A stretch of 64,000 nucleotides of DNA from Octopus vulgaris. Lineage: Eukaryota. The position numbers and the translations under genes are program-made. The number at the start of each line of letters is the position of its first letter. Positions within the stretch are counted from its first letter, which is position 1. The stretch lies in the NCBI GenBank assembly GCA_951406725.2, contig OX597826.1, forward strand, positions 72,354,001 through 72,418,000, written 5' to 3'. Below are positions 8,578 to 32,613 of this stretch, piece by piece. The notes beneath the pieces were generated by a model. The model saw only the letters and a list, made by a program, of their open reading frames with translations. It had not been told where the DNA came from and did not search any database.

Positions 8578-8808
8578 GATCTCTGCATCCCATTTGTTCT
8601 TTAATAATCATTAAGTAAAATTATTATTGCTGTTTTAAAGCACTTTTATCATTTTGAGATATTGCAAGATTGTTTTTGTTTGCACATTCGAAATGTTTGC
8701 ATTGAATTCTAAGTTATGTCTTTCTCTTTTCGCTTCCACTTGTAGGTTTTTTGTGTTGCTATTATTGCCATAGCTGTTCCTGTGTAAGCAGCAGGATCAT
8801 TGTACAGT

Positions 8809-8898
8809 ATGACAAGTGAAGACAGTCCAATAATGACTGCCCCACCACCTCAGCCACCCCCAGTTTATCCACAGGACAATATGAAAATGTTAGAAACT
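8809..8898 (+). CDS. SMARCA4: Coding exon 1 (exon starts 8746 with 63 nt of 5'UTR): MTSEDSPIMTAPPPQPPPVYPQDNMKMLET
   Basis: ttgtag acceptor ending 8745, in-frame TAA upstream of the ATG, act|gtaagt phase-0 donor that joins AINSMEEKG of the next exon. Confidence 0.85.
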
Positions 8899-8982
8899 GT
8901 AAGTATCTCAACTGCCGAATCTTTCTTTGCTATTTGTTGAAATCAGCAACAACAGAACTTTGATTTACCTTACATATATATA

Positions 8983-9289
8983 GTGGAGGCGCAATGGCCC
9001 AGTGGTTAGGGCAGCGGACTCGCGGTCGTAGGATCGCGGTTTCGATTCCCAGACCGGGCGTTGTGTGTGTTTATTGACTGAAAACACCTAAAAGCTCCAC
9101 GAGGCTCCAGCAGGGGGTGGTGATCCCTGCTGTACTCCTTCACCACTCTTTCTCTCACTCTTTTTTCTGTTGGCCTGCTTGCTTAGCCAGCGGGGTGGCG
9201 TCATTCGAAGGCTAAAACAATGCGAACGCATTGTGACCAGCGATGTGTAGCAACATCTGATGGTCTGGTCGGTCACGTGATCACGTGAT
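8983..9289 (+). mobile_element. tRNA-derived SINE family 3 inserted in (TA)n
   Basis: ggcgcaatggcccagtggttaggg..ggtttcgattccc tRNA-like head; tcacgtga tail. Confidence 0.85.
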
Positions 9290-9298
9290 ATATATATA

Positions 9299-9470
9299 GG
9301 CACAGGCATGGCTGTGTGGTAGGAAGCTCGCTTCTCAGCCACATGGTTCCAGGTTCAGTCCCACTGTGTGGCACCTTGGGCAAATGTCTTCTACTATAAG
9401 CATTGAGCCAACCAAAACCATGTGAGTGGATTTGGTAGACGGAAACTGAAAGAAGCCTGTTGTATATATG
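9299..9470 (+). mobile_element. SINE family 1, 5' half
   Basis: ggcacaggcatggctgtgtggtag...gaaactgaaagaagcc. Confidence 0.8.
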
Positions 9471-9479
9471 GTATAAGTG

Positions 9480-10070
9480 TATAAGTGCTCCGTGACCACA
9501 GTAAAGGCTGTAAGACATGACATGGACAGCTGCGATGGAAACCACAAAGCTATGACCAGCTGCAAGGTGATGGTCTTTGGGTGTGTCTTGAGGTAGAGTG
9601 ATGCCATGCCTCCTTACATCTTTGAACAGGGCGTTAGGCTCAATTCAGATGGCTGTGTGAAGCTGTTGGAGAGGGTTGCTGCTGGAAAGCCATATGTGTA
9701 GCAGCAGGATTTGGCTCCTTGCCATACCTCAGGAAATAGTCAGAAGTGGTTGTCGGAGAATTTCTATGACTTCCCCAGCCCCTAGTGTCTGGCCTCCTAA
9801 TTCCCCTGATTGTAATCCCATGGATTACTGTGGGTGGAGGTGTGTCTGAGAAAGACACCAACCATTCAGCATGCAACACCAAGGCTGAGCTGGTGACCAA
9901 GAGCAAGTGGGGGGTATTTGAAAATCTTCCCTGAGAGACAGTGAGGAATGCATATGCTGGGTTCCAGAGCTGTCTTGAGGCCATGGTGGAAGTGGAAGCT
10001 GGTTTTCTCCCAGCCATTATCTAGTTAATGTTTTTTTGATTTTTAAAATACTTTTATTTTTAGATGAAAT
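9480..10070 (+). mobile_element. Tc1/mariner-superfamily maT (DD37D) transposase fossil
   Basis: VMVFGCV, KPYV*QQDLAPCHTS...WLSENFYDF, frameshift, VWPPNSPDCNPMDY; 37 residues between the 2nd and 3rd Asp. Confidence 0.8.
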
Positions 10071-10073
10071 ATT

Positions 10074-10364
10074 GTGGATTTGGTAGACGGAAACTGAAAG
10101 AAGCCCGTCGTATATATGTATATATATATATATATATGCGTGTGTGTGTTTGTGTGTCTGTTTGTCCCCCTAGCATTGCTTGACAACCGATGCTGGTGTG
10201 TTTATGTCCCCGTTACTTAGCGGTTCGGCAAAAGAGACCGATAAAATAAGTACTGGACTTGCAAAAGAATAAGTCCTGGGGTCGAGTTGCTCGATTAAAG
10301 GCGGTGCTCCAGCATGGCCGCAGTCAAATGACTGAAACAAGTAAAAGAGTAAAGAGTAAAAGAG
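10074..10364 (+). mobile_element. SINE family 1, 3' two-thirds
   Basis: gtggatttggtagacggaaactg...taaaagagt tail. Confidence 0.85.
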
Positions 10365-10625
10365 TATTGTGTTTTCTTTTCCTTTTATGTACAACAAGTG
10401 TGTGTACAGTGGTTCCTGTGTGTAGAGTGGTTCCTGTGTGTACAGTTAAATGTACGATTGGTTCCGTATTAACATAATGTAATGCATAGTCCCTCTCAAC
10501 TGTTGTGCATCTGCATCCAAATGCACTATGAACACACATTGCAGAGGATGTAGCCCTAATGGCAAAATGTGTATGGAACAGATGGCATAAACTGCCTGTT
10601 GTGTTAATCAACCCCCCCCCTCTCG

Positions 10626-10674
<49 letters not shown>

Positions 10675-10677
10675 GAT

Positions 10678-10981
10678 GTGGAGACGCAATGGCCCAGTGG
10701 TTAGGGCAGCGGACTCGCGGTCGTAGGATCGCGGTTTCGATTCCCAGACCAAGTGTTATGAGTGTTTATTGAGCAAAAACACCTAAAGCTCCACGAGGCT
10801 CTGGCAGGGGGTGGTGGCGATTGCTGCTGTACTCTTTCGCCGCAGTTTTCTCTCGCTCTTTCTTCTGTTGGCCTGCTCGCCTAGCCAGCGGGGTGGTGTC
10901 ATTCGAAGGCTAAAACAATGCGAAGCGCATTGTGACCAGCGATGTGTAGCAACATCTGATAGCCTGGTCTGTCACAGTGAT
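10678..10981 (+). mobile_element. SINE family 3 (diverged relatives near 16210-16440 and 51805-52065 minus)
   Basis: Colinear with 8983-9289. Confidence 0.85.
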
Positions 10982-11697
10982 ATATATATATATAATGATA
11001 GTTGTCCACTTGTGACTGAGGAGGGCCATCACTGGCCATTGTCCATGCAGAGTGTCAACAATATCTGTGCATGAGATTATTGCACTTGTGGCCAGCTTAA
11101 CTCGGATTCACTCCTACAGCTTCCATGCTCGCTTTGGTGCCCTCCTACTCATCCTCACTGGCGATTGCACAAACTAAAATTTTAGATCCAATGTCTTGCA
11201 CATCTCACAGATCCTCTCCACTCCATTGGTATGATCCAGAGACACGCCAGGGTGAGATATCCAGTGCCAATAGGGTTGCAGGCTCAGGAATGTGAGAATG
11301 CCATGATCTCAGCACAAGCACTAGATCCCTGAAATGTTCACACACACACACACACATACACATACATATGAAAGAATAATTCAGATTAGATTTTGGTTCT
11401 TTTTCTTAACCTGATTCAACACATAGTTGTTGAATATCAAGAAAGTATATTGAGAATTGCAATCTCCTCTGTGAATTTGTCACTGCTGGGAATATGTCTT
11501 TCTGTTAGGGTGTTGGATCTTTAATGTCACAAGCTGTGGCTGGCTAAGCACCAATTTTCGGAGCCCCTTATACTTTTACTATCATAAAAGTTGAAGTATT
11601 TTAAGAAACTGGTTTTTAGTTTGTAATTTTCTTTGGCTGTTTGAAATATTTGTACTGAATTCTAAATATGCATTTCCCTTTTCTTTGCCACTTGTAG

Positions 11698-11889
11698 GTA
11701 TTTTGTGTTACTATTATTGCCATAGCTGTTCCTGTATTAGTAGCAGGATCATTGTACAGTATGACAAGTGAAGACAGTCCAATAATGACTACCCCACCAC
11801 CTCAGCTACCCCCAGTTTATCCCCAGGACAATGTGCAAATGTTACAAAATTTTAACAGCATTATTAAGACTTTACTTACTAGCTACTAA
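11698..11889 (+). pseudogene. Tandem duplicate of coding exon 1 (acceptor and ATG kept, donor lost)
   Basis: 12 substitutions and no indels over 153 nt versus 8746-8898; reads to TAA 11887-11889. Confidence 0.9.
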
Positions 11890-12654
11890 GTTTGTTGAAA
11901 TAGTAGTTAGTACAAACTTTGTAAGAGATATATTAGTATTTAGTATCTAATACGTTGCACAATTCAACACATGCCAGGTCATTGACTCCTTTTACTGGAG
12001 ATCAATTTATTAGCATTTGGACTGCCCACCTCACCTACATTTTTCCTAGAGACATTGACCTAAGCTGGCTATCAGATACCACTATCACTAGGTTAGAAGA
12101 ACCTTCAAAGATTGTACCTAAGTGCTCTTCTGCTTTTAACTAATTCATTTAAAAGAAAAAGAGAGAATTTATATGCTAATTAGATTCTTATTGTTTTTAA
12201 TGATATTGCAATTGAAAGAATAAATGAGTTTATTGTATATTTTTTACCTGAGGAAGAGGAGGGAAGCTAGCTGTTTTGAAGTATAAATAAAAGATTTAAA
12301 ATATTCAATATCACCCTGCTCAAGATTGCCCCTGGTTCAATGATACAAGCTCCCTGTTTTAAAATATCATTTTAATTTCTGTTCCTAACACTAGCTTAAA
12401 AACGACTGAGTTATTTTACTAAATTTTTCATTATTTTCAAAATAAATTGAAATAAAGATAGTGAGTTTCAGCAGAAATATCATAACAAAAGAGTTAATGA
12501 ATTTGCTATTTATTTTATAGACTGTCCATGTATCTGCAAAGTCGTAAATATATTACAAGGACTTTGTATAGGAGAGTAGTGAGTAATTTTCAGAAATAAA
12601 AGACAATGTTAATCTATGCGAAATTTGAGTGTGTTGCAACCTAATAGACTCTTT

Positions 12655-13206
12655 CATCATTATCATCATCGTTTAACGTCCGTTTTCCGTGCTAGCATGG
12701 ATTGGATGGTTCGACTGGGGTCTGGGAAGCCAGGAGGCTGCACCAGGCTCCAGTCTGATCTGGCAGTGTTTCTACAGCTGGATGCCCTTCCTAACGCCAA
12801 CCACTCCGTGAGTGTAGTGGGTGCGTTTTACGTGCCAGGGGAGGCTGGCAGTGGCCACGATCGGTTGGTGCTTTTTACATGCCACCGGTACAGAAGCCAG
12901 TCGAGGCGACACTGGCATCAGCCACATTTGGATGGTGCTTTTTACGTGCCACCGGCACATGTATCACCAATTTCCATTTGATATCTATTTTGATATTGAT
13001 GTACTTGACTCAATAGGTCTCCTCAAGCACAGCAGGTCATGTTCCACCAGCACAGAAGCCAGTCAAGGCAGCGCTGGCACCGGCCATGTTCGGATGGTGC
13101 TTTTTACGTGCCACCGGCACAGGTATCATAACTACAATTTCCATTTGATATTTATTTTGATGTTGATGTACTTGACGCGATAGGTCTCCTCAAGCACAGC
13201 AGGTCA
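12655..13206 (-). mobile_element. (GAT)n-tailed RTE-type SINE/LINE 3' end with internal GC-rich tandem units
   Basis: Reverse complement of ggcgttaggaagggcatccagctgtagaaac...gacgttaaacgatgatgat; repeated gtgcttttacgtgccaccggcac. Confidence 0.8.
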
Positions 13207-13312
13207 CCCTACAATATGTTATCCTGTCCCCCCCCCAGCTCCTTTGCCCTTCCTGTTGCTCATTTTTCAATATTTGATGTTAATGTCTTATGCTTTGTGT
13301 CTTCTTGTACAG

Positions 13313-13868
13313 GCTATTAATTCAATGGAAGAGAAAGGCATGCAGGATGACCCTCGATACTCTCACCTAGTGATAATTGCAAATCGAACCAAGGGAGTGG
13401 TGAGTGGAGGAGGTAATGGCACTGCAAGTGGTCCTGGATCACAGGGTTCGACAGGCCCTCCTAATATGGGTGGCCCAGGCCAAGGAATGGGTATGAGTGG
13501 ACCGGGCATGACACCCGGAAACAATATGAATGGACCAAATATGAACAACTCAAACAGCAATATGTCGAACCCTAATATGGCCGGACCAAATGGTGGAAAC
13601 ATGAACAGTGGAATGGGGGGTAATCCTTCATCTGGTACCGGTGTAGGTGCTGCTGGATCAGGTAACCCACCCAATGTCTATGCCAATATGCAAGGACCTA
13701 ATTCATGTGGTCCACCTGGGATGAATGGGCCGGCCATGAACAATATGTCCGGACCTAATAATGCTATGGTTGCAAACATGAATTCCAATATGAATGGTCC
13801 ACCCGGACCCCCAAATTCCTCTGGAGCTAATCAGCAAGCTATTGAAACCAGTGAACAAGGACCACAAG
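13313..13868 (+). CDS. SMARCA4: Exon 2: AINSMEEKGMQDDPRYS plus G/N/M/P-rich low-complexity region
   Basis: tacag acceptor, caag|gtaagt donor (phase 1); MEEKG..DDPRY is the Brahma N-terminal motif. Confidence 0.93.
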
Positions 13869-13886
13869 GTAAGTGTTTATTTTTAT

Positions 13887-13931
<45 letters not shown>

Positions 13932-14118
13932 GTTCGCCATGTTGGACCACTGAACTCAACATGTCTTTTTTTTTCATTCTCTCCCTATTTGTTTCCTTTC
14001 TGTTGAAGAGTGTAGGCTTGAATGTAAAAGATTTTTCCATTTTTCCCAACCGTCAAACTAATGCACTTGCTTGTTGTTCCTATACCTGTCTTTGTCTTTG
14101 TTATATATACATATATAT

Positions 14119-14156
<38 letters not shown>

Positions 14157-14159
<3 letters not shown>

Positions 14160-14377
14160 TAAAAGCGGTAAGATAACAAAAGAAAGAAAGAGACCTCAAT
14201 ATTATGTAAATAGAGGAAATTTATCTGTAAAATAATATGTAACAATTATTCGGTAGCCAAGATAAAACTCTGAGTTTCGGATGCCGAGGTGGAAATCCAC
14301 AACACCATCTCGTCGGTTATCTGGCCAGATAACCGAAGAGATGGAGTTTTATCTTGGCTACCGAATAATTGTCACAT

Positions 14378-14384
<7 letters not shown>
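14157..14384. mobile_element. (TA)n-embedded fold-back element with a hammerhead-like motif on the minus strand (14260-14322)
   Basis: Outer arms 14228-14270 and 14344-14384; inner palindrome 14305-14344. Minus strand reads agataa-CCGACGA-stemII-GAAAC tcaga GTT-ttatct. Confidence 0.65.
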
Positions 14385-14414
<30 letters not shown>

Positions 14415-15246
14415 ACATAGTGTAATTCAAGAAACCTGAGTCATAAAATATAAATAACTTTACAGATATTTATTTTAAAGTTTTAATTGTGCTTTTGTTA
14501 TCTTGAAACATAATTGCATATCTTAAAGTCTTTGAGATGCTGTACCACTATTCTTCAGCTACCAAGAAAACTTCTTCTCCAAATTGTTATGTATATGTCA
14601 GTAGCTTATTAAGATGTAGCAATAACAGCTACCTTGATGTGTTTTATATTAGTTGAAATATATATAATGTAGATAACTCTACAGCTATTTATTTGAAAGC
14701 CTTTTTTGTGGAGAGAATAATTGAGTAACTTACAGATCATTTTTTGGGGGACAGTTGTCCCTTGTCAGAGATGTGCCACAGAGAACTTTTAATCTAAATT
14801 ACTCTAGTTTTTGTGTATGTGTATTTTTAAAATTTTCCTTTGATTTTCTTGTTTTATTTAAAAAAAAAATTATTGATGTATTCAGTTGGTGTTTGCAATA
14901 CAATTTAACTAAAAGGTGTTTACATAAAACTAACACAAACTTCTTGCTTGAAAACTTCCTTTAATTAAAGGTAATAACAGGTAGTGAAATTAAACTTGGT
15001 ATTAAAATTACTGGTGCAGGAAGGCACCGAGCTGGCAGAATCGTAAGCATGCTGGGCAAAATGTATAGTGGCATTTCATTCGTTTTTACACTCTGAGTTC
15101 AAATCCTACCTAGATTGACTTTGTCTTTTATCCTTTCGGGGGTCAGTAAAATAAGTACCAGTTGAGCACTGGGGTCGATGTATTTGACTTTACACCCTCC
15201 CCGGAATTAGTGGCCTTGTGCCAAAGTTTGAAACCAAAATTACTAG

Positions 15247-15657
15247 GTGCCAGTATGGCTGTGTGGTAAGAAGTTTGCATTGCAACCACATGGTTCTGGG
15301 TTCAGTCCCACTGCATTGCATCTTCGGCAAATGTCTTCTATTATACGCTTGGGTCAACCAAATTCTCGTGAGTGGATTTGGTAGGCGGAAACTGAAAAAA
15401 GCCTTTAAATGATGACAATGATCACACACACGTGTGTCTTTGTGTTTGCCTCATGCCACTGTGTGAGAACTGGTGTTGGTGTGTTTACATCCCCCTAACT
15501 TACCAGTTCTGCAAAAGTGACTGATGGAATAAGTAGCAGGCTTAAAAAAAATAAAATAAAATAAAGAAAAATAAGTACGGAGCCAATTCAACTAAAATTC
15601 AGCAAGGTGGTGTCCCAGTATGGCCGCAGTCGAATGGCTGAATCATAAGATAAAAGA
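15247..15657 (+). mobile_element. SINE family 1, diverged (others near 268-570, 7666-8260, 29424-29582 minus, 29600-29760)
   Basis: Same head and tail motifs. Confidence 0.75.
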
Positions 15658-15920
15658 AAGTTATACAGAGTTGTTGTCAACTGTTGTGTTCGGTTAGATA
15701 ATATAATTGTAATATAAGGACGTCAGTGGATAGTTGTGTACCTTGATGGATTTACGATTTCTTTTCAGTGACTACAAAACAGTTATAAATCACAAAAGGG
15801 AACAAAAGTAGTACATAATAGTGGTGATATTTACGAAAATGTTTGAAGAAAATTACAAAAATAGTGTGTGTACATTATATATATGTATGTGTGTGTCTGT
15901 GTGTGTGTGTGTATATATAT

Positions 15921-16153
15921 ATTAGAGTAAGTTCTTAAATGTGATACAAGGGGGGGAAAATAGTACTTGAATGCCAGAGGTAGAGTAATATGCTTTATTA
16001 AAAAGCAGCAAAAATATCACAAAAACTGTTACTCAGAGTTTTCCATTCCCGTTCATCAGACAATTTTGTTTAGAAAACTGTCTGATGAATGGGAACGTGA
16101 AACTCTGAGTAACATTTTTTTGTGATATTTTTGCTGCTTTTTAATAAATTGTG

Positions 16154-16160
<7 letters not shown>
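15921..16160. mobile_element. (TA)n-embedded fold-back element with hammerhead motifs on both strands (Penelope-like derivative)
   Basis: About 74-bp inverted arms spanning 15994-16148, about 70-nt unique head, TA runs on both sides. Confidence 0.7.
16074..16119 (+). ncRNA. Minimal type I hammerhead ribozyme motif (Penelope-type)
   Basis: aaaactgt-CTGATGA-atg(ggaa)cgt-GAAA-c tctga g-TA-acattttt. All core nucleotides present; near-palindromic stem III ACTC-T-GAGT. Confidence 0.7.
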
Positions 16161-16197
<37 letters not shown>

Positions 16198-16465
16198 TAT
16201 ATATAAGCTAAGGCACATGGCCTAGCAGTTAGGGTGTTAGGGTGTTGCACTCACAATTGCTAGATTGTGGGTTCCTGAGCAAAACACTTTCGTGTTGCTC
16301 CTGTCCACTCAGCTGTAAATGGATAATCCTGTGACAGAATAGTCTTTCAGTCGAGGGGAATGTTAGCCTAGCTAGTGAGAGTGGATTCATTGGAAAGCTA
16401 AAACAGTGTACAGCACACTGTGGCCAGTAGTGTGTAACAACATCCTGTAGTCTGTGAGATATATT

Positions 16466-16610
16466 GCGTTAGGAAGGGCATCCAGCTGTAGAAACACTGC
16501 CAGATCAGACTGGAGCCTGGTGCAGCCTTCTGGCTTCACAGACCCCAGTTGAACCGTCCAACCCATGCTAGCATGGAAAGCGGATGCTAAATGATGATGA
16601 TGATGATGAT
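16466..16610 (+). mobile_element. (GAT)n-tailed RTE-type repeat
   Basis: Near-identical reverse complement of 12655-12800. Confidence 0.82.
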
Positions 16611-16859
16611 ATACAAGGCGGTGAGCTGGCAGAAATGTTAGCACACTGGGCGAAATGCTTAGTGGTATTTCATCTGTCTTTATGTTCTGAGTTCAAATTC
16701 CTCTGAGGTTGACTTTGCCTTTCCTCCTTTTGGGGTTGATAAATTAAGTACCAGCTGCGTATTGAGGTCGATTTAATTGATTGCCCCCTCCCCCTGCCCT
16801 AAAATTTTGGGCCTTGTGCCTAGAGTAGAAAAGAATATTGTGAGATATACATATATGTA

Positions 16860-18300
16860 TATAGTTTCCATGCTTGCTTTTCCATGTTGGCTTGTATAGA
16901 GGAGGTTTGTTTCAAAGCAGCAGCATCTCCACTCATTGTGGTCCTTTGTGAGTGCAAATATCTTGAGTTCAAACCTCACCACTTCTATGGTCTTCTTCAG
17001 TTTTCTTTCATCGGCTCCTTTCACTTTCATCTTTCGAATTTTTCCACCCAACTATCTCTCTTCATAACTTGTTCACACTTACATAGCCTTCTTTGCTTCA
17101 TGCCTAAAATACCTAAAATACCCAAGGTTTTTTCGCAACTCATTGTGCCCTGTTGTTCATGCATTCTGACTTCACGCATCCAGCAAAGCCCACTTGCTTC
17201 ATTTCTTTCTAGCCTTTACATATCCCTCACATTCTGCACCTAATGTCTTGCTAACACGATATATCACAATTTGTACAGAATTCAGTGTACTCTTCACTCA
17301 GAGAGTTGTTGTTTTGCTCCAAGTGTGTCTTAATCCAGCAGATAATATAGTCAAAGATACTCCTGTCTTGACGCTTTCATCTCATGTGTCTGGGAACATA
17401 TTTTTGTGTCCTTCCTGTTTGAAGATGGTAGGATGTGATTTGAGGGAATTTGGCAGTTATTACTAGCATACTAGTAGACTATGTAAGTGCATAGAGGCTC
17501 TGTTGTGTCCAGAGAAATAACAGCTGCTTCATCAGTTTCCACTTCATTGTTACTGAGGCTGCTCTGTTATCTCAGCACCCACCTACACTGATGAAATCAC
17601 CTTGGTAACAGAAACTACCTACTACTTTTAGCAAGTTTTCTGTGCAATTGTAAGATTTAATGTCTCATTTGCTCTCACTACTTTTGCATCTATTACATTT
17701 TGAAATCCTTCTCTGTCAGATGGCCATGGCTGGAATACTTTTTGATCAAAGGTTTCTTCAATCAGAGCTGACCTGGGACGGACTAAGCAACACCCTCATT
17801 AACTCGCACAAATAATGTATCTTAGCATGTATCTTAGTTCACCAGATAATTTCAGCATCTTGGTGACTCTCCTTCAGGCTTATATTTTCCCTGCCTTAAT
17901 ATCCTCGATGGCCTTTTCCACTGTGTAGCAGCCAACCTCAGTAACTGGATCCACTTAGAATAACCTCTTTTTCCCCCTACACATTCTCATCATCCATTAA
18001 CTGCTTATAACATCATTTCCATGCTTCTTTTTTCTTGGCGCTAGTTGATGAGGATGCACTGTATGCACTTCTCTCTTTGCAACATATGCTGGTGTCTAGC
18101 TGCTCTTTTACCTACTTGATATTGTTCCTTGCTCCCACGTATCTCTTTTGTGATCTCCAGCCTCTTTTCACCATTTCTTCCCATGTCTTACTTGGTCTTC
18201 TCCCACACATCATTTGGCACTTTCTTTTACCTCACTCTCATTCTCCTTGTTCATCTCACGTCCATACCTGCATAGTCTTCTCTCTTGCACACTACAACTC
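16860..18300 (-). mobile_element. Fragmented RTE-clade LINE remnants
   Basis: Minus-strand GRRPSKTWEEMVK (about 18160-18205) and KKTIEVVRFELKIFALTKDHNEWR resemble RTE ORF C-termini. Confidence 0.55.
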
Positions 18301-18510
18301 ACTTTTTACTTTTTTAACTCTTTTACTTGTTTCAGTCATTTGACTGTGGCCATGCTGGAGCACTGCCTTTAGTCGAGCAAACCGACCCCGGAACTTATTC
18401 TTTGTAAGCCCAGTACTTATTCTATCGGTCTCTTTTGCCAAACCACTAAGTGACGGGGACGTAAACACACCAGCATCGGTTGTCAGGCAATGCTAGGGGG
18501 ACAAACACAG

Positions 18511-18565
<55 letters not shown>

Positions 18566-18730
18566 TACGACAGGCTTCTTTCAGTTTCCGTCTACCAAAT
18601 CCACTCACAAAGCATTGGTCAGCCCAGCGCTATTGCAGAAGACACTTGCCCAAGATGCCACGCAGTGGGACTGAACCCTGAACCATGTGGTTGGTTAGCA
18701 AGCTACTTACCACACAGCCACTCCTGCGTC
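18301..18730 (-). mobile_element. SINE family 1
   Basis: Reverse complement of 41640-42051. Confidence 0.88.
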
Positions 18731-20104
18731 TATGCAGAGATCTTTTTTTTTTCTATAATTTTCTAACTAGGAAGATAACATTAGTGGTAGATTATGCAAC
18801 AGATCTGAACTGCATGTCAACTAAGCTGATTCTCTTCCTACTCTGTTGTATATAACTCTGTTTCTTACACAACCAGGTCCTTAAGCTTCTTGCTCTTATA
18901 ACATCTCCTTTGTCCCTGTAGCAGTTTTTACAATACTGTTACACCTGTTGTTAAAAAAAAGACACCTGTGCTCTCTGATTATGAGAGTGACAGGCTAGTA
19001 ACTCTCATAGCCAATCAGGTGTTGTGCTCTGTTGTTCACACACTCTAACATTATGCATTCTACCCCTTTGTATTGTTTGTAATGTGAAGATCTGATGAAT
19101 TCAAGCAAATATCTCTCGAAAAGGCTCTTGCCTTGCTTTCAGTAGGAAGTAACTTGAAATCATTTGATTTAATCAGCTTCTAATTGCATCGCTTCTTGTA
19201 CTTTATGATTCACTATATAGTGATACCGTGTGTATTATACCTAGTCTCATCATCCGATTCAAGTAACCTACACCTCTTGTATTATTTGTAATTGAGATTT
19301 ACAGTGAACCATTTCCATTTGGTGGTGAGGGAGAATTCAGTTTGCCACTTTTTGAAATATGTGGTCACTGGCAATTTTCCTTTTTACTATTGGGTTGTTT
19401 TATTATTTCTTTTTAACTTTGTTTTTAATGTTTTTAATATCCAACATAGCAGCTCATAATTATCCCTGTGGCTCACATGTATGTTAACACGGCTTCTAGT
19501 TTTTCCATAAAAAGTTAGACTGAATCACATCATTCAGGAAAAATGTTTATTTCTGTATCACATTCTACCCACAACCGTATAGCTTTTTCTACTTTGTATA
19601 AAAGTCAGATCTAACAGTAACCCCTGTCTATGTCATATATTTCCATAATTTTTATACCCCAACCTGAAGTGTGAATGTTGGTGGAGCTTTCATAACCTTG
19701 CATATCGTACCTGTACTCAGATATTTCTTTGTATTCCATTTGGTGTAAGTTTCCTTTAGACAATGACCAAGACAGGTGTTATCTGTAACTAACTGACCAA
19801 AGTTATTTCCTTGCATATTACTGTATAACTGATGTTATACAAATGCAAATATTGTTATAATTCCAAAAGCTGGAAACATAGGAGGTCTTTGAAGGGCACT
19901 TGTGCTCCAGTTAATTTAATACTCCTTGCTAGCTTTCAAATGCCCATTATTATAGTTATAGAGAATGAGTATAGCTGATTGATTTTTACTCTTTCAAAAT
20001 TATGGCTGGGTTCAGTTTCTTTGCAGAGTTTGCAAGGAAATTTAAAAAAAAAGATCTATGTTCAATTCTGTTACTTTTATGACCATTATTGTTGCCCAAA
20101 TCTG

Positions 20105-20450
20105 CATCATCATCATCATCATTTAACGTCCGTTCTCCATGCTAGCATGGGTTGGACGGTTCGACCGGGGATCTGGAAAGCCAGAAGGCTGCACCAGGCT
20201 CCAGTCTGATCTGGCAGTGTTTCTACAGCTGGATTCCCTTCCTAACGCCAACCACTCCGTGAGTGTAGTGGGTGCTTTTTACATGCCACCTGCACAGGTG
20301 TCAGGCGAGGCTGGCAACGGCCACGGGCTGATTGGTGCATTTTACGTGCCACCGGCACGGAAGCCAGTCGAGGCAGCACTGGCATTGGCCACGATTTGGA
20401 TGGTGCTTTTTACGTACCACCAGTCCAGGGGTCCTGGCATCTGCCGGGTG
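20105..20450 (-). mobile_element. (GAT)n-tailed RTE-type repeat
   Basis: Same family. Confidence 0.82.
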
Positions 20451-21618
20451 CCAATAAATGTGGAAGAAATAGTGCAAAAAGAAAAAAACTAACAGAACAT
20501 TCAATAAAAGTTATAAAGATAGCAGATGACACAAGGTCAACGTTTAACCTTTTTGCATGCAACACCACATCATTAATGTAGTAATGAGATCCTTGTTGAT
20601 GCTTCCTACTTTATATATATATCTGTGGCCCTTTGTTACCAGCCGGACTACCTAACATTACTTTTATCATGGTGGGCTGGCTGGACCGTTAGCACATGGC
20701 ATGAGATGCTTACAGGGATTTCTTATGGCTTCACATTCTGAGGTTGATTTTGTTTTATGTCCTATTTCCTTTTGGGGTTGATAAAATAACTACCTGTTAA
20801 GCATTAGGGTCAATAAAATCAAGTTAGACCTTACCCCAGATTGTAAAGCTTTTGCCTATTGTTATCATGATCATCATTGAAAATGGATGTTAAAATGCTG
20901 GTTGTGGTGATAGAGGTAGCAACAATGTCAAGTGGTTTGATAACACAGGACCATGGGTAGGTAAGAAAGTAGGAGCAAGAGACGTGGGTTGATAATGACA
21001 AGATTAGTGAGTTTACATGTGTATACGAAAATAATAGAAAGAAGAGGAATAATGAAGATAAAGATAGTCAATTAGAAATTGAACTCACATTGTTAAGATG
21101 ATTGCTCTTTGTGTTATTAGATATTGGACCGTTCGCTCATGAGTCTGGAGTATTTATTCTTGTGTGTGTGTAGCAAATTAGCATTGAATTACGAAAATGA
21201 ATGAAATGAGAAATTAGGAAAGCTTCTAACAATGCAGAAAGTCTAAAAGACCTTTATATTTCAAGCACAAATGCCTACCTTCAAAAGAAACAGTTAAAGA
21301 AATGTCTATTTACATAGATCCTGCTATTTTAGATAGTCCGGTGTTTGAGTCAGTAGCAGCATTGGATTTCTCTGGGAATGTGCAACTCATGTCTTGGTGT
21401 TTGCTTTTCATATAGTCCCTTGTGATAGAGAGGTTGGGAAGTGTGGTTAAGGTGCTGGATCCGTTTGTCACTTTAGACCATTTTGTAGCCATTGTATTGC
21501 ATTCTTGAGTTAAAGTATATTATCTTTACTTTACTCCTTTTACACAAAAAGAATAATATGTAACCATAAGAAATATTTGATGTTTGATAATATATAAATT
21601 TATGTATATGTATTTCAG

Positions 21619-21840
21619 GTAACAATATCCCACCTTCTGGTATGGGAGGCAATCCCAATATGCCAGCACAAGGACCGCCAACTGGACCAAGGACTCAGTT
21701 TTCTGCATCACAGCTTGCACAACTCAGAGCACAAATTATGGCATACAAATTGATAGCTCGCAATCAGAATTTACCTGATAATATACGTTATGCTATTGAA
21801 GGAAAACGCAGTGGTTATGGACCTCCATATCAAAGACCTG
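21619..21840 (+). CDS. SMARCA4: Exon 3: QLQ domain (FSASQLAQLRAQIMAYKLIARNQ)
   Basis: tttcag acceptor, g|gtaagt donor, phase 1-1. Confidence 0.95.
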
Positions 21841-22117
21841 GTAAGTGGTTACCGTTTCATAAACAACTAGGTTTGTTAGTGATTGACTCTAGCTGACTGA
21901 CTTATAATAGTTTGCACACAAGTGTTCAGTGCAGTTAACAAAATGTTTTTTCATTTGGAGACTAGAGTTAACTGTGAGTTTTAGCTGCTGGTCTTCTGCT
22001 AACATCAAAATCATAAGTTCAAGTTACACATCAACCAGTATATTTTACTTGTACATTTTTCTTATGCTTGTCTATCTTGTTGAAAAAAGATACTAACCTT
22101 ATGACAAAGTGGATAGT

Positions 22118-22364
22118 TTAACCTTTAGCATTTAAACCAGCAATATCAAACCCAAATAATCTGTTTTATGTAAAAAAAAAAATTTTTTTAATAAAAAAAA
22201 AAAAACTGGCTGGATCTGGCCTCTCACATCTACTCTACAATGTCATTCTAATAATAAATGATATCATCATTAAAATCTTGAAATTATAAGATAATGCATA
22301 ATTAATTCAAAACAATATGAAAGAATTAGCATTACATTTGATAATCTGAATGCTAAAGGGTTAA
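22118..22364. mobile_element. piggyBac-like MITE family B
   Basis: Same termini and internal gataatgcat.attaattcaaaacaat motif. Confidence 0.8.
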
Positions 22365-23077
22365 TGTTAGGGTGAAAGAACATGTAGCATCCATGAGAAA
22401 GTTGTTCTTTGTGGAAACTCTGACCTATCTCATCACATGTAGAAAACTCTTTAAAACAATTTTAAATTCATCAGCTTGTATTGCTGAGGACACACATTAA
22501 TAAACAAAAACGACAAACAATAATAGTAAATGCGTATTCGGGCTTTTATAATCTGTTAATCCAACTAGAGTTTGGGTTTTTCTGGGAAGACACCTAGTGA
22601 AAAAAAATCCACAGCCTTTTGAGAGGAAAAAAAAAAGTCATTACTTTATGAAAAGTTGGTGATGTGGTCAAGTGTTTAACATGAAGAAGTGAATTACTGC
22701 AAGTAGGACAATGGTGTGGATATTGCAATGAAGTAAAATAAATAGAATTTTGAACTTTTGTTAGCTTTTCCAGTATAAGATCCTTTTAAATATTATCTTT
22801 CTTTGCTATAAGACTAATCTGCTGTAATGCTTATCAGATTCTGATGTGATATATATTTATATGTGACAGTGTTTCTAGATCAAACACTATCATATATCTC
22901 TAACAATGGATCTGTGGAAATTGATCATTCAACCAATTAGTAAAGTGTTGTATGCTTGCTTGATTGGTAAGCGTCCTCAGGGCTAGCAACAAACACTTAT
23001 CAAACGATGAATTAGATAAGCATCAAATCAGCTCATCTCTGTCATGGTGTCACTCCTTGTTTTTTTCTGTATTTCAG

Positions 23078-23351
23078 TTGATCCCCATCAGATGCAACAA
23101 ATGAGGATGAACCAGCCGCAACAGCAACAGCCACCACCGCAAGGCATGGTACCTGCTGCTCAAAACTATCCTCCTCAAATGATGTCAGCTCAGAGCCAAC
23201 CGAATGTTCAAGTTCAACAACGAATGCAACAACAACAGCCGACGTCAATCCAAGCTATTGTATCTCTTCAACAAAGACAGAATCGAGTATCGCCTGTCGG
23301 CAAACCAACAGGGCTGGATCCCATAGAAATTCTGAACGAACGGGAACACCG
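23078..23351 (+). CDS. SMARCA4: Exon 4: Q/P-rich linker to [17 protein letters not shown]
   Basis: tttcag acceptor, cg|gtatct donor, phase 1-2. Confidence 0.93.
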
Positions 23352-24163
23352 GTATCTAGATATGATTTCATTATCAACTTTTTAATTACTATTTGACAAC
23401 CACTTTGGTCTTCCTAACTATATTATTGTACAGGAAGAGTGGCCAATTGGCAAAAATAGTGGTTTTATAGAATTTGGTTCCATTCTGAATTTAAATCCTG
23501 ACTCTGCTTTTCGTTCACCCAAGGTTGAAATTATAAGCACCAGTCATATACTGGTGTCTGTTCAATTGATTCTGCCCTTATCCTACAAATTTGTCGTCTT
23601 GCACTAATTTAAGGATTGCAATCATTGGCAATTTTGTGTTACTGAAAACTGTGTCTTTGGATTCACCTGTAGCACATTCCTATTAGATAAAACCTGTTCA
23701 AGGAACTGACAAACTCTATTGATATTTTATTTTATTATTTCTGTTTTCCAATTAATTATAATCAGAAATATTAAATTTCTAAATGTCTGAAAGAGACATG
23801 AGCGGTAGAAAATGTGTCAAAGCCGACAGGAAGCGTTCAATGCTTCCTAGGGCTAAACAGTGGTGGTGTAATTCCCATACAGGACTGTCACGTTAAGTTG
23901 GCAGTATACAACCACTCCAATTAATTATAAATTAATACAAAAAAGATTTATGGGTGTGTGAATCTTTGGACATCTATCTCAGAGACAAAGCTTGTCACAT
24001 GATATGAGTGATTATTTTAAGAATGTAACTAAAACTTCAACAAGATAGAAGCTGATGAATTTTTAAGGCCTAAACTGTTGTATAAAATGACTAAACCTAT
24101 TTTGGTAAATTTTTTTCTTCAAATAATTCGTTTTTACATTGTTCTGTTTTATTATAATTTCAG

Positions 24164-24290
24164 ATTAGGAGCAAGGATTGCTCAGCGAATCCAAGAACTT
24201 GAGACTTTACCAGCAACGATGCCTGAAGACATGCAAATGAAGGCTATGATTGAACTTAGAGCTCTGAGACTTCTGAATTTCCAAAGACAG
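24164..24290 (+). CDS. SMARCA4: Exon 5: [13 protein letters not shown]...[14 protein letters not shown]
   Basis: ttcag acceptor, cag|gttgag donor, phase 2-0. Confidence 0.95.
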
Positions 24291-25147
24291 GTTGAGTTGT
24301 CTTTCTATCATCTTTTTCTGTTAGGAGTCAGCGTATGATTAGCTGTGTATTGTTCCCTCAAAGCTAATTATGTGTTTTTGTGTAATAAAAACAACAATAA
24401 TTTTTAGTGGTCACAAGGGTTAAACACATAAGATGCAAAATCTGTGAGGATGTATTTATATGTAATATGCAAGTTAGGGGCATGGTGTATTAAAACGGGT
24501 TAAAAAATTTAGTAATACAAAGACAACCCACCCACACAATGATGAGAAGCTGCTACCTAGATAGGATCAGGGTACCTCCTGATTTGAATTGAATCTTCTG
24601 TTCTAGGGCCTATGATCTCACTCATGCGTTATTCATTACCGTTTAATACATTCTGAGGATTTTAGAGCAGCAGTTTCATAAGCTGTTCATGCTTTTGTGA
24701 AAGGTATTTCCAACATAAAATGCATGAAGTAGTTCCTAGTGAAGACTGAACGTGGCCTGTAGACACTGCTTCCACAACCAACCACCACCACCACCATCAC
24801 TACAGTAGCTTGTTAATTGGTCAGGTCATTCGTTATGTAGAATTCTCTGTGGTATTCAGAAATTGGAGGAATTTCTTCATAGTTAGTAGTGGTGAGTGAA
24901 GGGAAAGGACAGAATAAAAGAGATTTTGTTTGCTAATGGAGAATTGAAGGTAGAGACACTTGTCTGCAGTGAGAGAAGGGAGACAGTTTTTGCCTTCTTT
25001 ATATTAATGGGTGACACTTTTCTGGGTTTTGAAGTGTCCTTTTTGTTTTTAATAAAAACACTTGGTCTCGTTATTTAATAAACCACTTTTGAGCATTGGG
25101 ATTTTTGCCCCATGAGTCTAGCAAGAAATTGGGATATGGCAGTTTAT

Positions 25148-25528
25148 GTACACTGTATTAGTTGGACTGGTGTACTCATTTTCATTGTTGATTTCACTAC
25201 GTTTCGGCTGGCTGTTCACTCCAGCCTTCTTCAAGTGTCTTGAGTTGAACTCAGTTGTTGCTTTGGAATTTCGAATCTAATCCTTTATTTGAGCCATGGA
25301 CGTCCACATCTCATTCTATTCCCTGCATTTCCTGACAGTTTTTGCTTCAATTGATTTTCTTGTGAATTATCATTTGTGCCTCGCCTGGGATTGAACACAG
25401 AACCTCTACATGACTGCACTGAATTGACCAATGAAGTGAAAGCAACAATCACTATAAAGATACTAGTCTGACTAATATAAACAGTATACATAATATAAAT
25501 TTCTCATCTCAGAAATATAGAATTGTAT
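25148..25528 (-). mobile_element. Penelope-like remnant with inverted ends and a degenerate hammerhead (25195-25237)
   Basis: Minus strand cac-TTGAAGA-a-ggctgg..ccagcc-GAAAC-GTA-gtg; imperfect terminal inverted repeats; 13-bp flanking direct repeat tatggcagtttat. Confidence 0.6.
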
Positions 25529-25847
25529 TATGGCAGTTTATCTTGTTAATATTTCCATATACAACATCCTGCTTTCCTGAAAGCAATGTATAGCCTATAT
25601 TCTTACATTTGATCATTCTTATTTTAAAACCTGTTGAGTCAGTAACTGTATTACAGCCACCTAATCATCCTCCAGAAAACTACTTTGTGAATTGGTTAAT
25701 TTATTTTAATTATATCTAATGTTGTTAATTCTCTTCTGTTTTTAAAAAAGTTATCTGCATATTTTCAAATGTGTTCCTTGATCTGTTTGTTTATATTTGA
25801 ACATTGCTCATGCAGTTTACTACATTGTCAACCATCTTTCTTTTCAG

Positions 25848-26021
25848 TTAAGACAGGAAGTTGTATCATGTATGCGTAAAGACACCACTCTGGAAACGGC
25901 ACTAAATACAAAAGCTTACAAACGTAGCAAGAGGCAGTCTTTAAGAGAGGCGCGTGTCACTGAAAAATTAGAAAAACAACAGAAAATGGAGCAAGAAAGG
26001 AAGAGACGGCAGAAACACCAG
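25848..26021 (+). CDS. SMARCA4: Exon 6: [20 protein letters not shown]...RRQKHQ
   Basis: 174 nt, phase 0-0, canonical splice sites. Confidence 0.95.
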
Positions 26022-27470
26022 GTCGGTATTTGTTTCTCTATATATATTTTTATGTAAAAATACGAGACTGCTTGGTTCTTTTACCGTTGAAGTATCTGTA
26101 TTTCTTGGCAGTGGGGAAATATGATTTTGGATCACTGTCATCATGTCTGTTTTTCTGTGCATTGTAGTGCCTGTATGCATGTGTGTTTATCTTCAAGCCC
26201 CCATTTTGTAAAGTACATTCTGATGACTTTACTCTGAAGTGATTGAGGTGTCTCATGGCACCCTCTTGCTTATAGAACCATATCACTGCAGACTCTTTTC
26301 CTGCTCGATTTGCTCAATATTAATATTTAAACTCAAATCTCTTGCATTTAACCAGTCCCTCAGCTTGACATTCTCTCCATATCCTGTAATTACTATTAGC
26401 ATCTAGTCTGGCTGTCATATAGAGAAATCTCAGGTTTCTGACAGAGACAGCGATTCTTTAATCTGTTACTAAGATGCCCAAAACCTTTCAACTTCACCTA
26501 TTCATACTTAATTTTACCAGAAAATTTCTTATATTCATAATCTGACAATTTTACTATGAAATATTTATGTTCTCAGAAATTATCTTCTCAGAAATTTTGG
26601 GATGTTTTTTATCAATTTTTTTTAGTACTTATTTTTATAAGGCTTAATTTATTTATTTTTTTGTAAATTATATAAAATCGTATAAGCTTCAGATATTGTA
26701 ATAACAGTTCTGAATTGGAATGTTTTTCGAATGCAGCAAATAAATTAATGTATTCAAGGAAAAACATATTAATTTTAAACTGGATGTTTCAATTTACAAG
26801 TGTGTAAACAATATCAAACAACAGTAGTTAAAACTAAGAGAATGAAATGAAAATTTTTTAATTGGTTCTTTTCAAAAACTTTTAAAACTGAATCCAGTCT
26901 GTCATCACACTGACAGCTATATCCTTTTTATTCCAATTCAAGTGTTCTATATAATAAAGATACAATAAATAAAATAAAAAGGCAGGTAGACTAATCAAAA
27001 TTGAAACATTTTTATCATAAATACAACAATGAGCATTTAGTAAGCTATATAAAATAATATAGGTTAATATCTCATTTGATAATATTATAGTTAAACAAGA
27101 TTTAAGTAGCTTTATATTTCTGAATTTACCTGAGATTAAACAAAAATTCCATAATAGATTTCTGTAAGAACTTTTTATGTTTCAAACTTTCACACCACTT
27201 TAATAATTAAAAAAAAGCTAGTTGTTTTGCAGAACTTGTCTAAATTAACAATTCTTTTAACATTTAATTGTAACATTTGATTAATTATATTTTAGTATAG
27301 TATAGTAATGTAAGGGTTAAACCATATATCATACATTCTCTCTTTTCATCTCTTTACTGTTACTATCACTACATCAGGTACTCATTGATTGTTAGCAAAT
27401 GGACATTTGTTAGAGACAATTAACTATACTAATTAAGTGCTGATATTAATGATTTAAATTATTCTTTCAG

Positions 27471-27644
27471 GAATATTTGAATGCAGTCTTGCAACATGCT
27501 AAAGACTTCAAGGAATTCCATCGCAATATGTCTGTGAAGATTGGCAAGTTGAACAAGGCTGTTATGACTTACCATGCCAACACTGAACGGGAACAAAAGA
27601 AAGAACAAGAAAGAATAGAAAAAGAGCGTATGCGACGCCTTATG
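27471..27644 (+). CDS. SMARCA4: Exon 7: HSA domain ([17 protein letters not shown]...ERMRRLM)
   Basis: 174 nt, phase 0-0, canonical splice sites. Confidence 0.96.
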
Positions 27645-28538
27645 GTAAGTGCCTCCTTCCTTGACTATCTGTACGTGATGAGCCGATGAAGAAGTTCCTA
27701 CTTCAAATCACATCCTAGATTTTTAAAAAGCACCCCTGCTGGCATCACATAAAGGGCACCCATACTAGCACCACGTAAAAGCATCAGTACACTCTGTGAA
27801 CAGGTTGGTGCTAGGAAGGGCATCCATCTGTTCGAAATCATGCCAAAACAGACGACTGGTGCAGCCCTCTAGCTTGCCAGCTCCTGTTGAACTGTTCAGC
27901 CCATGCCAGCATGGAGAATGGATGTTAAATGATGATGATGATGATGATGATGAAATAATGTAATGCTAAATACTCATAGGATCATTTCTCTTCAACAACT
28001 CTGCTCATAAAGTGTGTCCATTGGTTTGATCACAAGGTAAACTTATCCTTAATGGAGTTGTGCTGGAACCCTTCCCAAGAATGCATAAATGATGAAGTGG
28101 ACTTAAAGTCTTGAACCACTCTCTAGCCCTTGTGATTTCAACAGCAGACAAAATATTCATAACTGATTTCTGATCCCCACATCATATGTCTGCCATCATT
28201 GGGTGTATCCAGTTTGTATTTGTGGTGGTTGGAGCCAGCTCAACTCATCCCTGCTGGAAGCTGACACTTTCCTTTGCTTAAGTATTCAAATCAAGTTAAG
28301 ATGATCTTTATCTTAATCATCATCGACAATATTATCAACATTATTCTTATCAACTTTCAAGAACTTGTAAATTTGTTCTGACTGAAAGCCTTAGGCCAGC
28401 TTTGATCCCTCCTTGGAATGGTCTCATTTGGAAAACACAGGGCACCACAGCTTCCTTGAAAATCTTTTTTTTTCTTCCTTTGGTTTATATGATTTCATTG
28501 TGAGTAAGGATTTTAATTCTCCTCTTTTACTGTTTCAG

Positions 28539-28712
28539 GCTGAAGATGAAGAAGGCTACAGGAAACTTATTGATCAGAAGAAAGATAAGCGTTTGGCCTA
28601 TTTACTACAGCAAACTGATGAATACGTGTCTAATCTAACAAAACTTGTTGTACAACATAAGATCGAACAAAAGAAAAATAAAAAGAAGAAGAAGAAAAAG
28701 AAGAAGGCTACT
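28539..28712 (+). CDS. SMARCA4: Exon 8: post-HSA ([29 protein letters not shown]) plus poly-Lys
   Basis: 174 nt, act|gtgagt donor. Confidence 0.95.
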
Positions 28713-30504
28713 GTGAGTACCTTTAAGAAAATGTTAAGACAATGATTTCTATTCACCGCCCATCAATGGTCTTTCCATGTTTCTGTTTTGCTTCGACATC
28801 AGTCTACTTGACTGACAATAAGTACTGCACATTGGCTTTACAGCTGAGTGGTTAGTAGAAGAAATGCTGTGACAGATATTTCTGTGTAACAAGATTGGTA
28901 AACAATACCTCCTGATCTTGCTAGCATGGAAATTATTATTGTGAGCTATAACAGAATATATCATTGTTTTAACGTCCACTTTTTTTTTGTTTGCATGAGT
29001 CAGATGGAATTTGCTGAGGCAGATTTTGTATGGTTGGACGCCCTTCCTGGTGCCTGTTGCCAACCTGCATCTGTTTCCAAGCAAAGTAACATTTCTTCAT
29101 GGCTGAATATCTTCTCATGGTAGATTTTATTTCATTTCATTTCATTTGAGTTTGAGTCCATGCTCAGGCCAAGTCGAAGACTCCACCCTCAGAGTCTGGT
29201 GTGGTTGCCAGGTTGTATTCTCTGTTTAATTTTGACATGTGTAGGAGCGAGTTTGAGTCAGTTTGTGCTCGTTGTGTATATCCTGGGAGATGGGGTTCAT
29301 CTCTAATGGTGCTTAAGTATCTATCCAGCTGCAATGAACAGCACCACTTGTATGCTGGTCACTCTTGTCCACAAATGTCATGTGATGTCAAAAGAAGGTG
29401 ACACAAACTCATACTTGTATACAAGTTTCTTTCTGTCTCCATCTACCTGATCCACTCACATGGCTTTGTTTGGCCCAAGGCTATAGGAGAAGAACATTTT
29501 CCCAGGGTACCATGCAGTGGGACTAATCCTGAAACTGTGCTGTGGAAGGGAACTTCTTATCTCTACAGCCATCCTTGTGCCTATTAACGATTTAGATAGA
29601 CACAGGCGTGGCTGTGTGGTTAAAAAGCTTACTTCCCAACCAAGTGGTCTTGGGTTCAGTCCCAGCATATGATACTTTGGATAAGTGTTTTGCTACTATA
29701 GCCCTAGGCTAACCAAAGCCATGTGAATGGATTTGGTAGGCTGCAACTGAAAGAAAATTGTATACGTGGGTGTGGGTGTGTACCTTGGTTGTAAATGAGC
29801 ATCACTGTCATACAAGCAGTATTGTTTGTTTTTAGTCTTCCATGGAGAAATATGTGTGACCATGGGAAATATTAATGTACTTGGATAAAGATGAGGGTTA
29901 GCAACAGGGAGGGCATCCAGTCATAGAAAATCTACCTCATTAAATTCCATCTGATTCATGTAAGCCTGGAAATGTAGATGTTAAATGATGACAATGTTAT
30001 TCTAAAGACCTTTGATTTATGAAATTTAATTAGGAAAAACCAGTTGAATTGGTATTTTATATAAGTATGCTCAAATTAAATGATGCAATGTCAGCAACTG
30101 TAATGCTCATACTCTACAAATAAGATGAATAGAAGGGGGGAAAAAAGGACTACTTTGATGATTCCTTGACAGAGGACATGACAAAAGTGATGAGTATGGA
30201 AAATTGATGTTAAAATGATGATGATGATGATAATTTATGCAATTTGCTTAATGAGATGCGCAAACTTTTATCTTTTCTTATTTAATTAGTTATTATGAGA
30301 ATGATAGACAGCAGTAGTAAAGATTCATTTTCTACTAATATTTGATAAAAGAATGGAAATATCTATGATATTAATGTGGTTAATGTGCAGTTTCTACAGG
30401 AGCTTTTTTTTTTTTTTTGAGGGGTTGGAGTATTTGATGGAGTGTCAGAAAGGTTCATAGATGCATAAGTTATATGTGGGAATGGCATATAATTGATATG
30501 ATTA

Positions 30505-30780
30505 TGTGGCCGTTGCCAGCCTCTCCTGGCCCCCGTGCTGGTGGCACGTAAAAAGCACCATCCATCCGTGGCCGTTTGCCAGCTCCGTCTAGCACCTGTG
30601 CGGGTGGCATGTAAAAAGCACCCACTACACTCGCAGAGTGGTTGGCGTTAGGAAGGGCATCCGTCTGTAGAAACACTGCCAGATCAGACTGGGCCTGATG
30701 CAGCCTTCTGGCTTCACAGACCCCAGTTGAACCGTCCAACCCATGCTTGCATGGAAAGCGGACGCTAAATGATGATGATG
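30505..30780 (+). mobile_element. (GAT)n-tailed RTE-type repeat (older copies near 27740-27953, 48070-48266, 50120-50245, 61560-61655 minus)
   Basis: Same family. Confidence 0.82.
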
Positions 30781-31086
30781 GAAATGATGGAAACCATTAA
30801 AGCAGTGGTAAAAGAGACACAATATAAATGGTGAATCTGTTGGGTTTTGCTCATTCCTGCATAGCTTTTCCTTTGGTGTAATATAGAATTATCTAGAAGT
30901 TGCCATATGTATCAGCAATGAAATAAATGTAATACATGTTAAACTGGAGGTAATGGATGAGAAAACATAAAACCATAAGTAAGCTATGAAATTGTGTATT
31001 CAAAGCCAGTGTTGCTTTTTGTTTTCAGTGAGTAAACTTGATTTTTGGAAGAATTATTTCAACAATAACTTTTATTTCTTTTTCAG

Positions 31087-32495: not shown

Positions 32496-32613
32496 GTAAG
32501 TGAATCTGTTATTATAATTTGCCTTTGTTGTTGTATTGAGTATTATTGTAGTTGTTGTTTAGCTATAAGCTAACTTTTCCATTTGTTATAACAAAATTTC
32601 TGTTTGTATTCAG

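Follow-up and report, generated by a model that had tools for sequence, protein, structure and literature searches.

Comparison of two homologous exons of the Brahma gene of Octopus vulgaris suggests that the downstream one, which has no donor site, is probably the retired original start exon of the gene, and that the upstream one, now the first coding exon, drifted and then took over this role after the donor of the original had been deleted. Both exons lie in the window, that is, the whole analyzed stretch of 64,000 nucleotides, and the coordinates of the main features are collected in Table 1.

The host gene is an orthologue of Brahma/SMARCA2-4 (SNF2L2) with 33 coding exons and 1621 amino acids. 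Protein P0001, named from both O. vulgaris and O. sinensis, spans positions 8809 to 62545 in 33 exons and has QLQ, HSA, BRK, SNF2, Helicase_C, SnAC and bromodomain matches above the Pfam cut-offs; the combination of QLQ, HSA, BRK, the SNF2 ATPase, SnAC and the bromodomain in one chain places it in the Brahma/SMARCA2-4 family. The first and second coding exons together encode a motif matching residues 57–96 of human BRG1 (E=7e-6), while the second exon had no match when compared with PDB sequences. The octopus motif is homologous, judged by the sequence match only, to the N-terminal motif of SMARCA4/BRG1 (PDB chains 6lth_I and 9wbz_A), from which it differs in that four derived octopus residues sit in the variable middle of the motif.

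Table 1. Features of the duplicated start exon of octopus Brahma and its surroundings
Feature	Position	Strand	Remarks
Host gene, Brahma/SMARCA2-4 (SNF2L2)	8746..62545	+	P0001 mapped letter for letter; 33 exons, GT-AG introns
Upstream member of duplicated segment	8674..8985	+	firm 8674-8896; weak to 8985 and back to ~8622
Working first coding exon	8746..8898	+	63 nt UTR, ATG at 8809, 30 codons, donor at 8899
Derived codons V25M, Q26K, Q29E, N30T	8881..8898	+	outgroups P0009 and P0013 agree against P0001
Downstream member of duplicated segment	11627..11938	+	firm 11627-11848; weak to 11938 and back to ~11571
Intact acceptor of the copy	11678..11697	+	score 9.8, versus 10.2 in the working exon
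Donor-less exon copy	11698..11850	+	ancestral VQMLQN kept; derived A11T, P16L; in runs X19 and X20
Open frame, 63 codons	11698..11889	+	21 former UTR, 30 copied, 12 former intron; 42 aa from its own ATG
Donor deletion site, ~8 nt	11850..11851	+	anchored alignment of downstream flanks
AATAAA, not conserved	12219..12224	+	GATAAA in X2, X19 and X20 (3/3 runs covering)
AATAAA at edge of high-copy repeat	12286..12291	+	read from the window sequence
Second coding exon	13313..13868	+	supplies the remainder of the conserved N-terminal motif

Aligned within the window, the working exon (8746–8898) and the copy (11698–11850) have no gaps and differ at 12 of 153 positions: five differences fall among the 63 positions of the 5'UTR portion and the other seven in the 30 codons, where six are non-synonymous. 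The copy retains the acceptor and, at 11761, the ATG, and the TAA at 8785 in the UTR of the working exon is TTA at 11737 in the copy. The two members of this tandem pair are homologous and belong to the same gene, in which the duplicated segments are spaced 2.95 kb apart; they are the only copies in their own genome (both of two candidates scored), and the 40 kb upstream of the window contain no third exon copy and no recognizable first exon or promoter. Homology is firm between 8674–8896 and 11627–11848 (87%) and weak farther out, back to about 8622/11571 and forward to about 8985/11938: the far-upstream extension scores 7 (shuffle mean, 12), and the downstream extension scores 20.5 (300 shuffles; mean 6, maximum 29). 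The exon, with 12 differences in 153 positions, is truly better conserved than the firm flank, with 16 in 71 (Fisher p=0.004). A search for a longer tandem unit gave an upstream homology score of 34, at shuffle level (mean 32, maximum 44), and one downstream score of 41, above the maximum of 38 in 30 shuffles, which was set aside as its places are incompatible with a tandem unit.

The DNA between the copies (8971–10992) is mostly high-copy repeat, because of which the distance between the copies may originally have been much smaller. Related elements at 8971–9298 and 10661–10992 are 87% alike. A head-to-tail pair of a 162-nt repeat-derived unit (87%) is found at 12882–13206 and ends about 100 nt before the acceptor of the exon at 13313.

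Splice sites were scored with a matrix derived from Brahma itself (31 donors and 32 acceptors). The score of the copy's acceptor is reached by only 0.3% of 3006 decoy AG sites. The donor of the copy was lost not by substitutions, but because about 8 nt were deleted, beginning right where the exon ends. GT sites farther downstream score 1.8 (11920), 4.8 (11977) and 5.5 (11905), above one, three and four of the 31 real donors, respectively. A candidate donor at 11832, inside the copy, was rejected with a score of -3.4, lower than that of any of the 31 real donors. Across the exon end, the contigs of runs X19 and X20 contain a total of six and two gap letters, and no restoration of the donor shows up among the differences listed; both runs carry 11768 G>C, the T3 allele of the O. 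sinensis protein P0006. A preliminary description of this DNA had listed a copy with 12 substitutions and no indels, more decayed flanking introns, a retained acceptor and ATG, the change of TAA to TTA and the disappearance of the gtaagt donor, all of which is borne out, the cause of the last being refined to the deletion. It had also considered that the copy might be an assembly artefact, which is not the case, since the copy is present in two further DNA-type runs, X19 and X20.

Twenty four runs were listed by words of 11600–12330, and four of them (X1, X2, X19 and X20) were examined, all as contigs, which lose rare variants and in which repeats swamp the tables of joints and loose ends, hiding rare joints. 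None of the 24 runs is RNA on record and none has half of the words, and the list was taken as no evidence on expression. The RNA label of X1 and X2 is a guess of the tool; however, spliced contigs join 8898 to 13313 in both spliced runs, at depths of 187 (X1) and 124 (X2), and this joint across a 4.4-kb GT-AG intron means that both contain transcripts. The copy is skipped in these two spliced transcript sets. In the same runs no contig lies on 11698–11850, and low-depth contigs cover 11902–12132 (depth 3) and 12118–12346 (depth 2.4); as words of this very region had served to pick the runs, no conclusion was drawn from the cover or from the hole around the copy.

Outgroup proteins were used to determine which copy is ancestral. 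The protein cluster has 17 members, and the N-termini of the 15 listed members were compared; polarity was assigned to amino acid differences only, the UTR, synonymous and TAA/TTA differences having none. Six of the 15 proteins, all named O. vulgaris or O. sinensis, begin with the upstream exon and have MKMLET at residues 25–30; seven proteins (six from O. bimaculoides and one from Argonauta) have A11, P16 and VQMLQN, and an eighth (O. bimaculoides) protein starts at MLQN. P0006 (XP_036364322.1, the O. sinensis isoform annotated as X2) is the one among five listed O. sinensis-named proteins that begins with the sequence of the copy. The first 30 residues of O. bimaculoides and Argonauta are identical to each other, and these outgroups share A11 and P16 with the upstream exon and VQMLQN with the copy; V25 and Q29 also occur in the bivalve Brahma P0017. 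Hence, of the six amino acid differences between the copies, four are changes of the working exon and two are changes of the copy. The preliminary description had listed the predominance of non-synonymous changes (six of seven) as a caveat; taken as decay of the copy, this has the wrong polarity for four of the six.

Nine changes specific to O. vulgaris and O. sinensis were found across the 1621 residues, four of them in the 30 residues of this exon (Fisher p=1e-5), where they fall inside a span of six codons (p=0.009). The copy, on the other hand, has two non-synonymous changes, whereas 8–10 are predicted from half of the flank divergence (p=0.004–0.013). Taken together, the four changes in the working exon and the mere two in the copy suggest that the copy spent most of its history under constraint, the working exon being free to change. 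Some of the four changes in the working exon may have been tolerated or selected instead of arising by drift, as its M25 is the residue of human BRG1.

In the course of events that we propose, a short exon-bearing segment was first duplicated within Brahma, giving the present pair 2.95 kb apart. During most of the time since then, the downstream copy would have been constrained and the upstream one dispensable, as suggested by residues 25–30, which are outgroup-like in the former and changed at four positions in the latter. A later gene conversion, for which the case is weaker, may have equalized the first ~135 nt, leaving the last 18 nt with a flank-like divergence. The deletion of the downstream donor would then have left an exon that is no longer defined, with 8898 being spliced to 13313 and MKMLET becoming fixed in the Brahma of O. 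vulgaris and O. sinensis. Since then the copy would have been decaying (A11T, P16L and, in some genomes, S3T). Its open frame, TTA and acceptor presumably survive because little time has passed since the donor was lost: at a drift of 4–6%, AG and ATG survive with a probability of 0.73–0.82 and the open frame with 0.66–0.76.

The divergence between the copies is 5/63 in the UTR, 1/18 at synonymous and 6/72 at non-synonymous sites, all below the 16/71 of the flank, and this similarity of the three classes would fit conversion better than selection at the protein level. Nucleotides 1–135 differ at 8 of 135 positions and the last 18 nt at 4 of 18. A conversion tract does not reach significance from the DNA differences alone, either by the clustering of four of the 12 differences in some 18-nt window (p=0.64) or by the longest identical run of 49 nt (p=0.10), and the synonymous value of 1/18 taken alone is not significantly lower than that of the flank (p=0.06–0.18).

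The age of the duplication can be roughly placed at 23–55 million years, from a corrected flank divergence of 27% and assuming that the difference of 1.2–2.9% between runs X19 and X20 and the window stands for a split of 2.5 million years. According to the accessible text of 10.1101/2023.05.16.540928, O. vulgaris and O. sinensis split 2.5 million years ago and O. bimaculoides 34 million years ago. The duplication would thus have occurred around the O. bimaculoides split, and a decayed relic of the upstream copy is predicted in that species.

Joining donor 8898 to acceptor 11698 gives, as had been claimed from the start, an open frame, which has 93 codons and ends at the TAA at 11887–11889. It contains a hydrophobic stretch with a Kyte-Doolittle value of 2.59 over 19 residues, which, by hydropathy only, is long enough for a membrane span. 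Among 15,564 overlapping non-coding windows without a stop, 0.42% are at least as hydrophobic as its 21 residues, as are 0.59% of 4,877 T-matched windows and 1.6% and 0.17% of open dinucleotide and mononucleotide shuffles, respectively. The earlier caveat that T-rich DNA yields such peptides by chance is therefore too strong, the stretch being rarer than it allows (0.4–0.6% of windows and 1.6% of dinucleotide shuffles). However, the parent UTR, when read in this frame, has the same residue at 18 of the 21 positions and is interrupted by a stop; the hydrophobic property was thus inherited, predates the copy and is uninformative on selection in the copy. A stop-removing change among the five UTR differences has a 22% chance. 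The 63-aa frame had no match among proteins of 34–111 aa, among 1.84 billion representatives, in Pfam, or by identity, and conservation as a protein was thus not observed in these databases.

One observation speaks against a plain relic and would be easier to explain with two live exons: in P0006 the copy is followed directly by the next exon, and the junction between them is the ancestral one. The two copies would then be alternative first coding exons providing two Brahma N-termini, still so in O. sinensis, the downstream donor having been lost only in some genomes, and the upstream exon would have diverged under relaxed or positive selection. Runs X1 and X2 take the upstream exon, while the annotated O. 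sinensis isoform begins with the copy; P0006 has T3, T11, L16 and VQMLQN of the copy and is identical to P0001 in the rest; both acceptors are equally strong; and N-terminal substitution by duplicated exons is, in the accessible text of PMC9741552, a known and enriched class. On the other hand, X19 and X20 share the T3 allele, and yet a GT donor is not seen among the differences listed, and the copy is used in just one of the five listed O. sinensis-named proteins. Moreover, P0006 may be a model over a non-consensus junction, based for example on reads from octopuses with the ancestral sequence; the NCBI pipeline admits such junctions. On balance, two alternative start exons seem unlikely. The option of an alternative first coding exon in the preliminary description accordingly retains some support from the O. 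sinensis isoform with its ancestral junction, but not in the form proposed there, as the donor at 11832 is too weak. A switch of start exons still in progress, with O. sinensis making both N-termini and the copy acting in the present genome as an attenuating terminal exon that yields the 93-aa peptide in some tissues, is very unlikely. Another possibility is past co-inclusion of both exons in a Brahma longer by 51 residues until the donor was deleted, where the N-terminus would have come from the upstream copy and the half-helix from the downstream one, each copy shedding the part it did not need. The complementary distribution of the changes (codons 25–30 upstream; 3, 11 and 16 downstream) would agree with this, as would the frame-preserving length of 153 nt and the TTA where the parent has TAA, and conversion would be unnecessary. 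However, the protein would have had a strongly hydrophobic linker, the stretch described above, near the N-terminus of a nuclear protein, and an N-terminal hydrophobic stretch, like a signal anchor, is likely to misdirect a protein to membranes. As the linker is in none of the 15 listed proteins, and the complementary order of four and two changes arises by chance in 1 in 15 cases, we consider co-inclusion very improbable.

Two further readings give the donor-less copy a present role. As an attenuator, its acceptor would capture some of the transcripts spliced from 8898 and so tune the dose of Brahma, either by intronic polyadenylation or by a downstream cryptic donor and a premature stop followed by degradation. 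The acceptor is as strong as that of the parent, and the cryptic donors at 11905, 11920 and 11977 leave the stop 16, 31 and 88 nt upstream of the junction, but these donors are weak. The contigs, from which rare forms are dropped, show skipping, and minor use of the copy may be hidden. Both AATAAA hexamers described earlier are indeed in the window, and the one at 12286 remains a possible signal, but the one at 12219 is GATAAA in X2, X19 and X20, and neither a conserved poly(A) signal nor a conserved donor with a premature stop, as expected of a poison exon, was seen; besides, at least two hexamers are found in 9% of 402-nt windows of this sequence, and the X2 contig at 12118–12346 extends 55 nt beyond the second hexamer, like pre-mRNA or DNA. 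Pseudogenic exons have been proposed as a source of regulatory transcripts (PMC2718932, accessible text). That the donor-less octopus copy now acts as an attenuator is distinctly unlikely. Still less probable, indeed extremely so, is that the read-through product is a functional 93-aa membrane microprotein. Its frame is open and is unbroken by any listed difference in X19 or X20, and the stretch is more hydrophobic than T-rich chance suggests; but at 1–3% divergence a frame is expected to stay open by chance, a nearly identical stretch with a stop is already present in the parent UTR, the 63-aa part matches no known protein in the searches made, and its 12 C-terminal residues are former intron. 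The headline of the preliminary description, a terminal exon encoding such a microprotein, thus finds no support, given the 8898–13313 joint in two of two runs, the first hexamer lost in three of three and the inheritance of the stretch from the UTR; the locus gives no evidence of a new microprotein.

Among known systems, tandem duplicated exon substitution likewise involves homologous tandem coding exons in one gene, each of which can in principle supply the same region, and 40 of the 236 human events are N-terminal (PMC9741552). In the accessible text of that study, both exons of the known pairs remain spliceable and the events are mostly ancient, whereas the octopus pair is seen only in vulgaris/sinensis proteins, one of its members being donor-less here, and its alternative use is represented by one RefSeq model of the sister species. 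By analogy, the locus would correspond to such a pair in its final stage, and it falls outside the class in this genome, as both exons of the pair would need a working acceptor and a working donor and the copy has no donor in the window. Pseudogenic exons (Morais and Harrison 2009, PMC2718932) are, in the part of that report available, likewise decaying exon duplicates near the 5' half of the parent gene, in which non-synonymous and neutral sites change alike; between the octopus copies the counts are 6/72 non-synonymous and 1/18 synonymous, and just two non-synonymous changes are on the branch of the copy. They are defined there by a frameshift or a premature stop, while 11698–11850 contains neither and is disabled by the loss of the donor; in addition, the donor-less octopus copy is the one with the ancestral residues. 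Duplicated exons of Dscam (PMC3236188) are likewise gained and lost between related species, but, as far as the accessible text goes, they form arrays of many mutually exclusive exons with no gene conversion found there, whereas there is just one pair in the octopus gene, and conversion is weakly indicated. A literature search, which covered neither subscription papers nor supplements, found nothing on this locus, on exon takeover or on cephalopod exon duplication. The locus is a real exon turnover of an ordinary class, unusual in its direction, and not a new kind of element.

If the proposed swap of roles is true, a spare exon drifted and then replaced the original, and a very slowly changing protein acquired a burst of changes, none of them selected for, in a conserved motif, which would account for four of the nine changes setting vulgaris/sinensis Brahma apart; such bursts could mimic positive selection. 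The swap predicts a decayed upstream copy in O. bimaculoides, and the RefSeq isoform XP_036364322.1 would represent an annotation artefact or else a genuine alternative N-terminus.

Several other features of the gene were observed. The spliced contigs of runs X1 and X2 both start at 8747, one base inside the predicted acceptor; the X1 contig terminates at this point, as would be expected of a branch (unspliced RNA or alternative upstream exons), and the X2 contig has 69 extra letters beyond 8747 that are absent from the window. In the ATG frame, the 5'UTR at 8746–8808 has a codon-like periodicity and gives a hydrophobic reading, which breaks off 21 nt short of the ATG; it may represent the end of an upstream ORF, given an in-frame ATG in an upstream exon, or a decayed triplet repeat. 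Both copies have an internal acceptor-like site just before codon 23 (8875 and 11827), the use of which could explain the O. bimaculoides isoform P0012, starting at MLQN.

The introns of Brahma contain self-complementary stretches at 52822–53135 (90%), 15994–16148 (88%) and 29417–29765 (69%), which are probably miniature inverted-repeat elements and could form double-stranded RNA in the pre-mRNA. Short coding exons are found at 31087–31119 (33 nt), 46595–46672 (78 nt), 57348–57418 (71 nt) and 59976–60008 (33 nt). The listed Brahma isoforms have 1569–1630 aa, with the length differences partly near residues 1236–1241 and 1575–1588, which suggests alternative splicing there.
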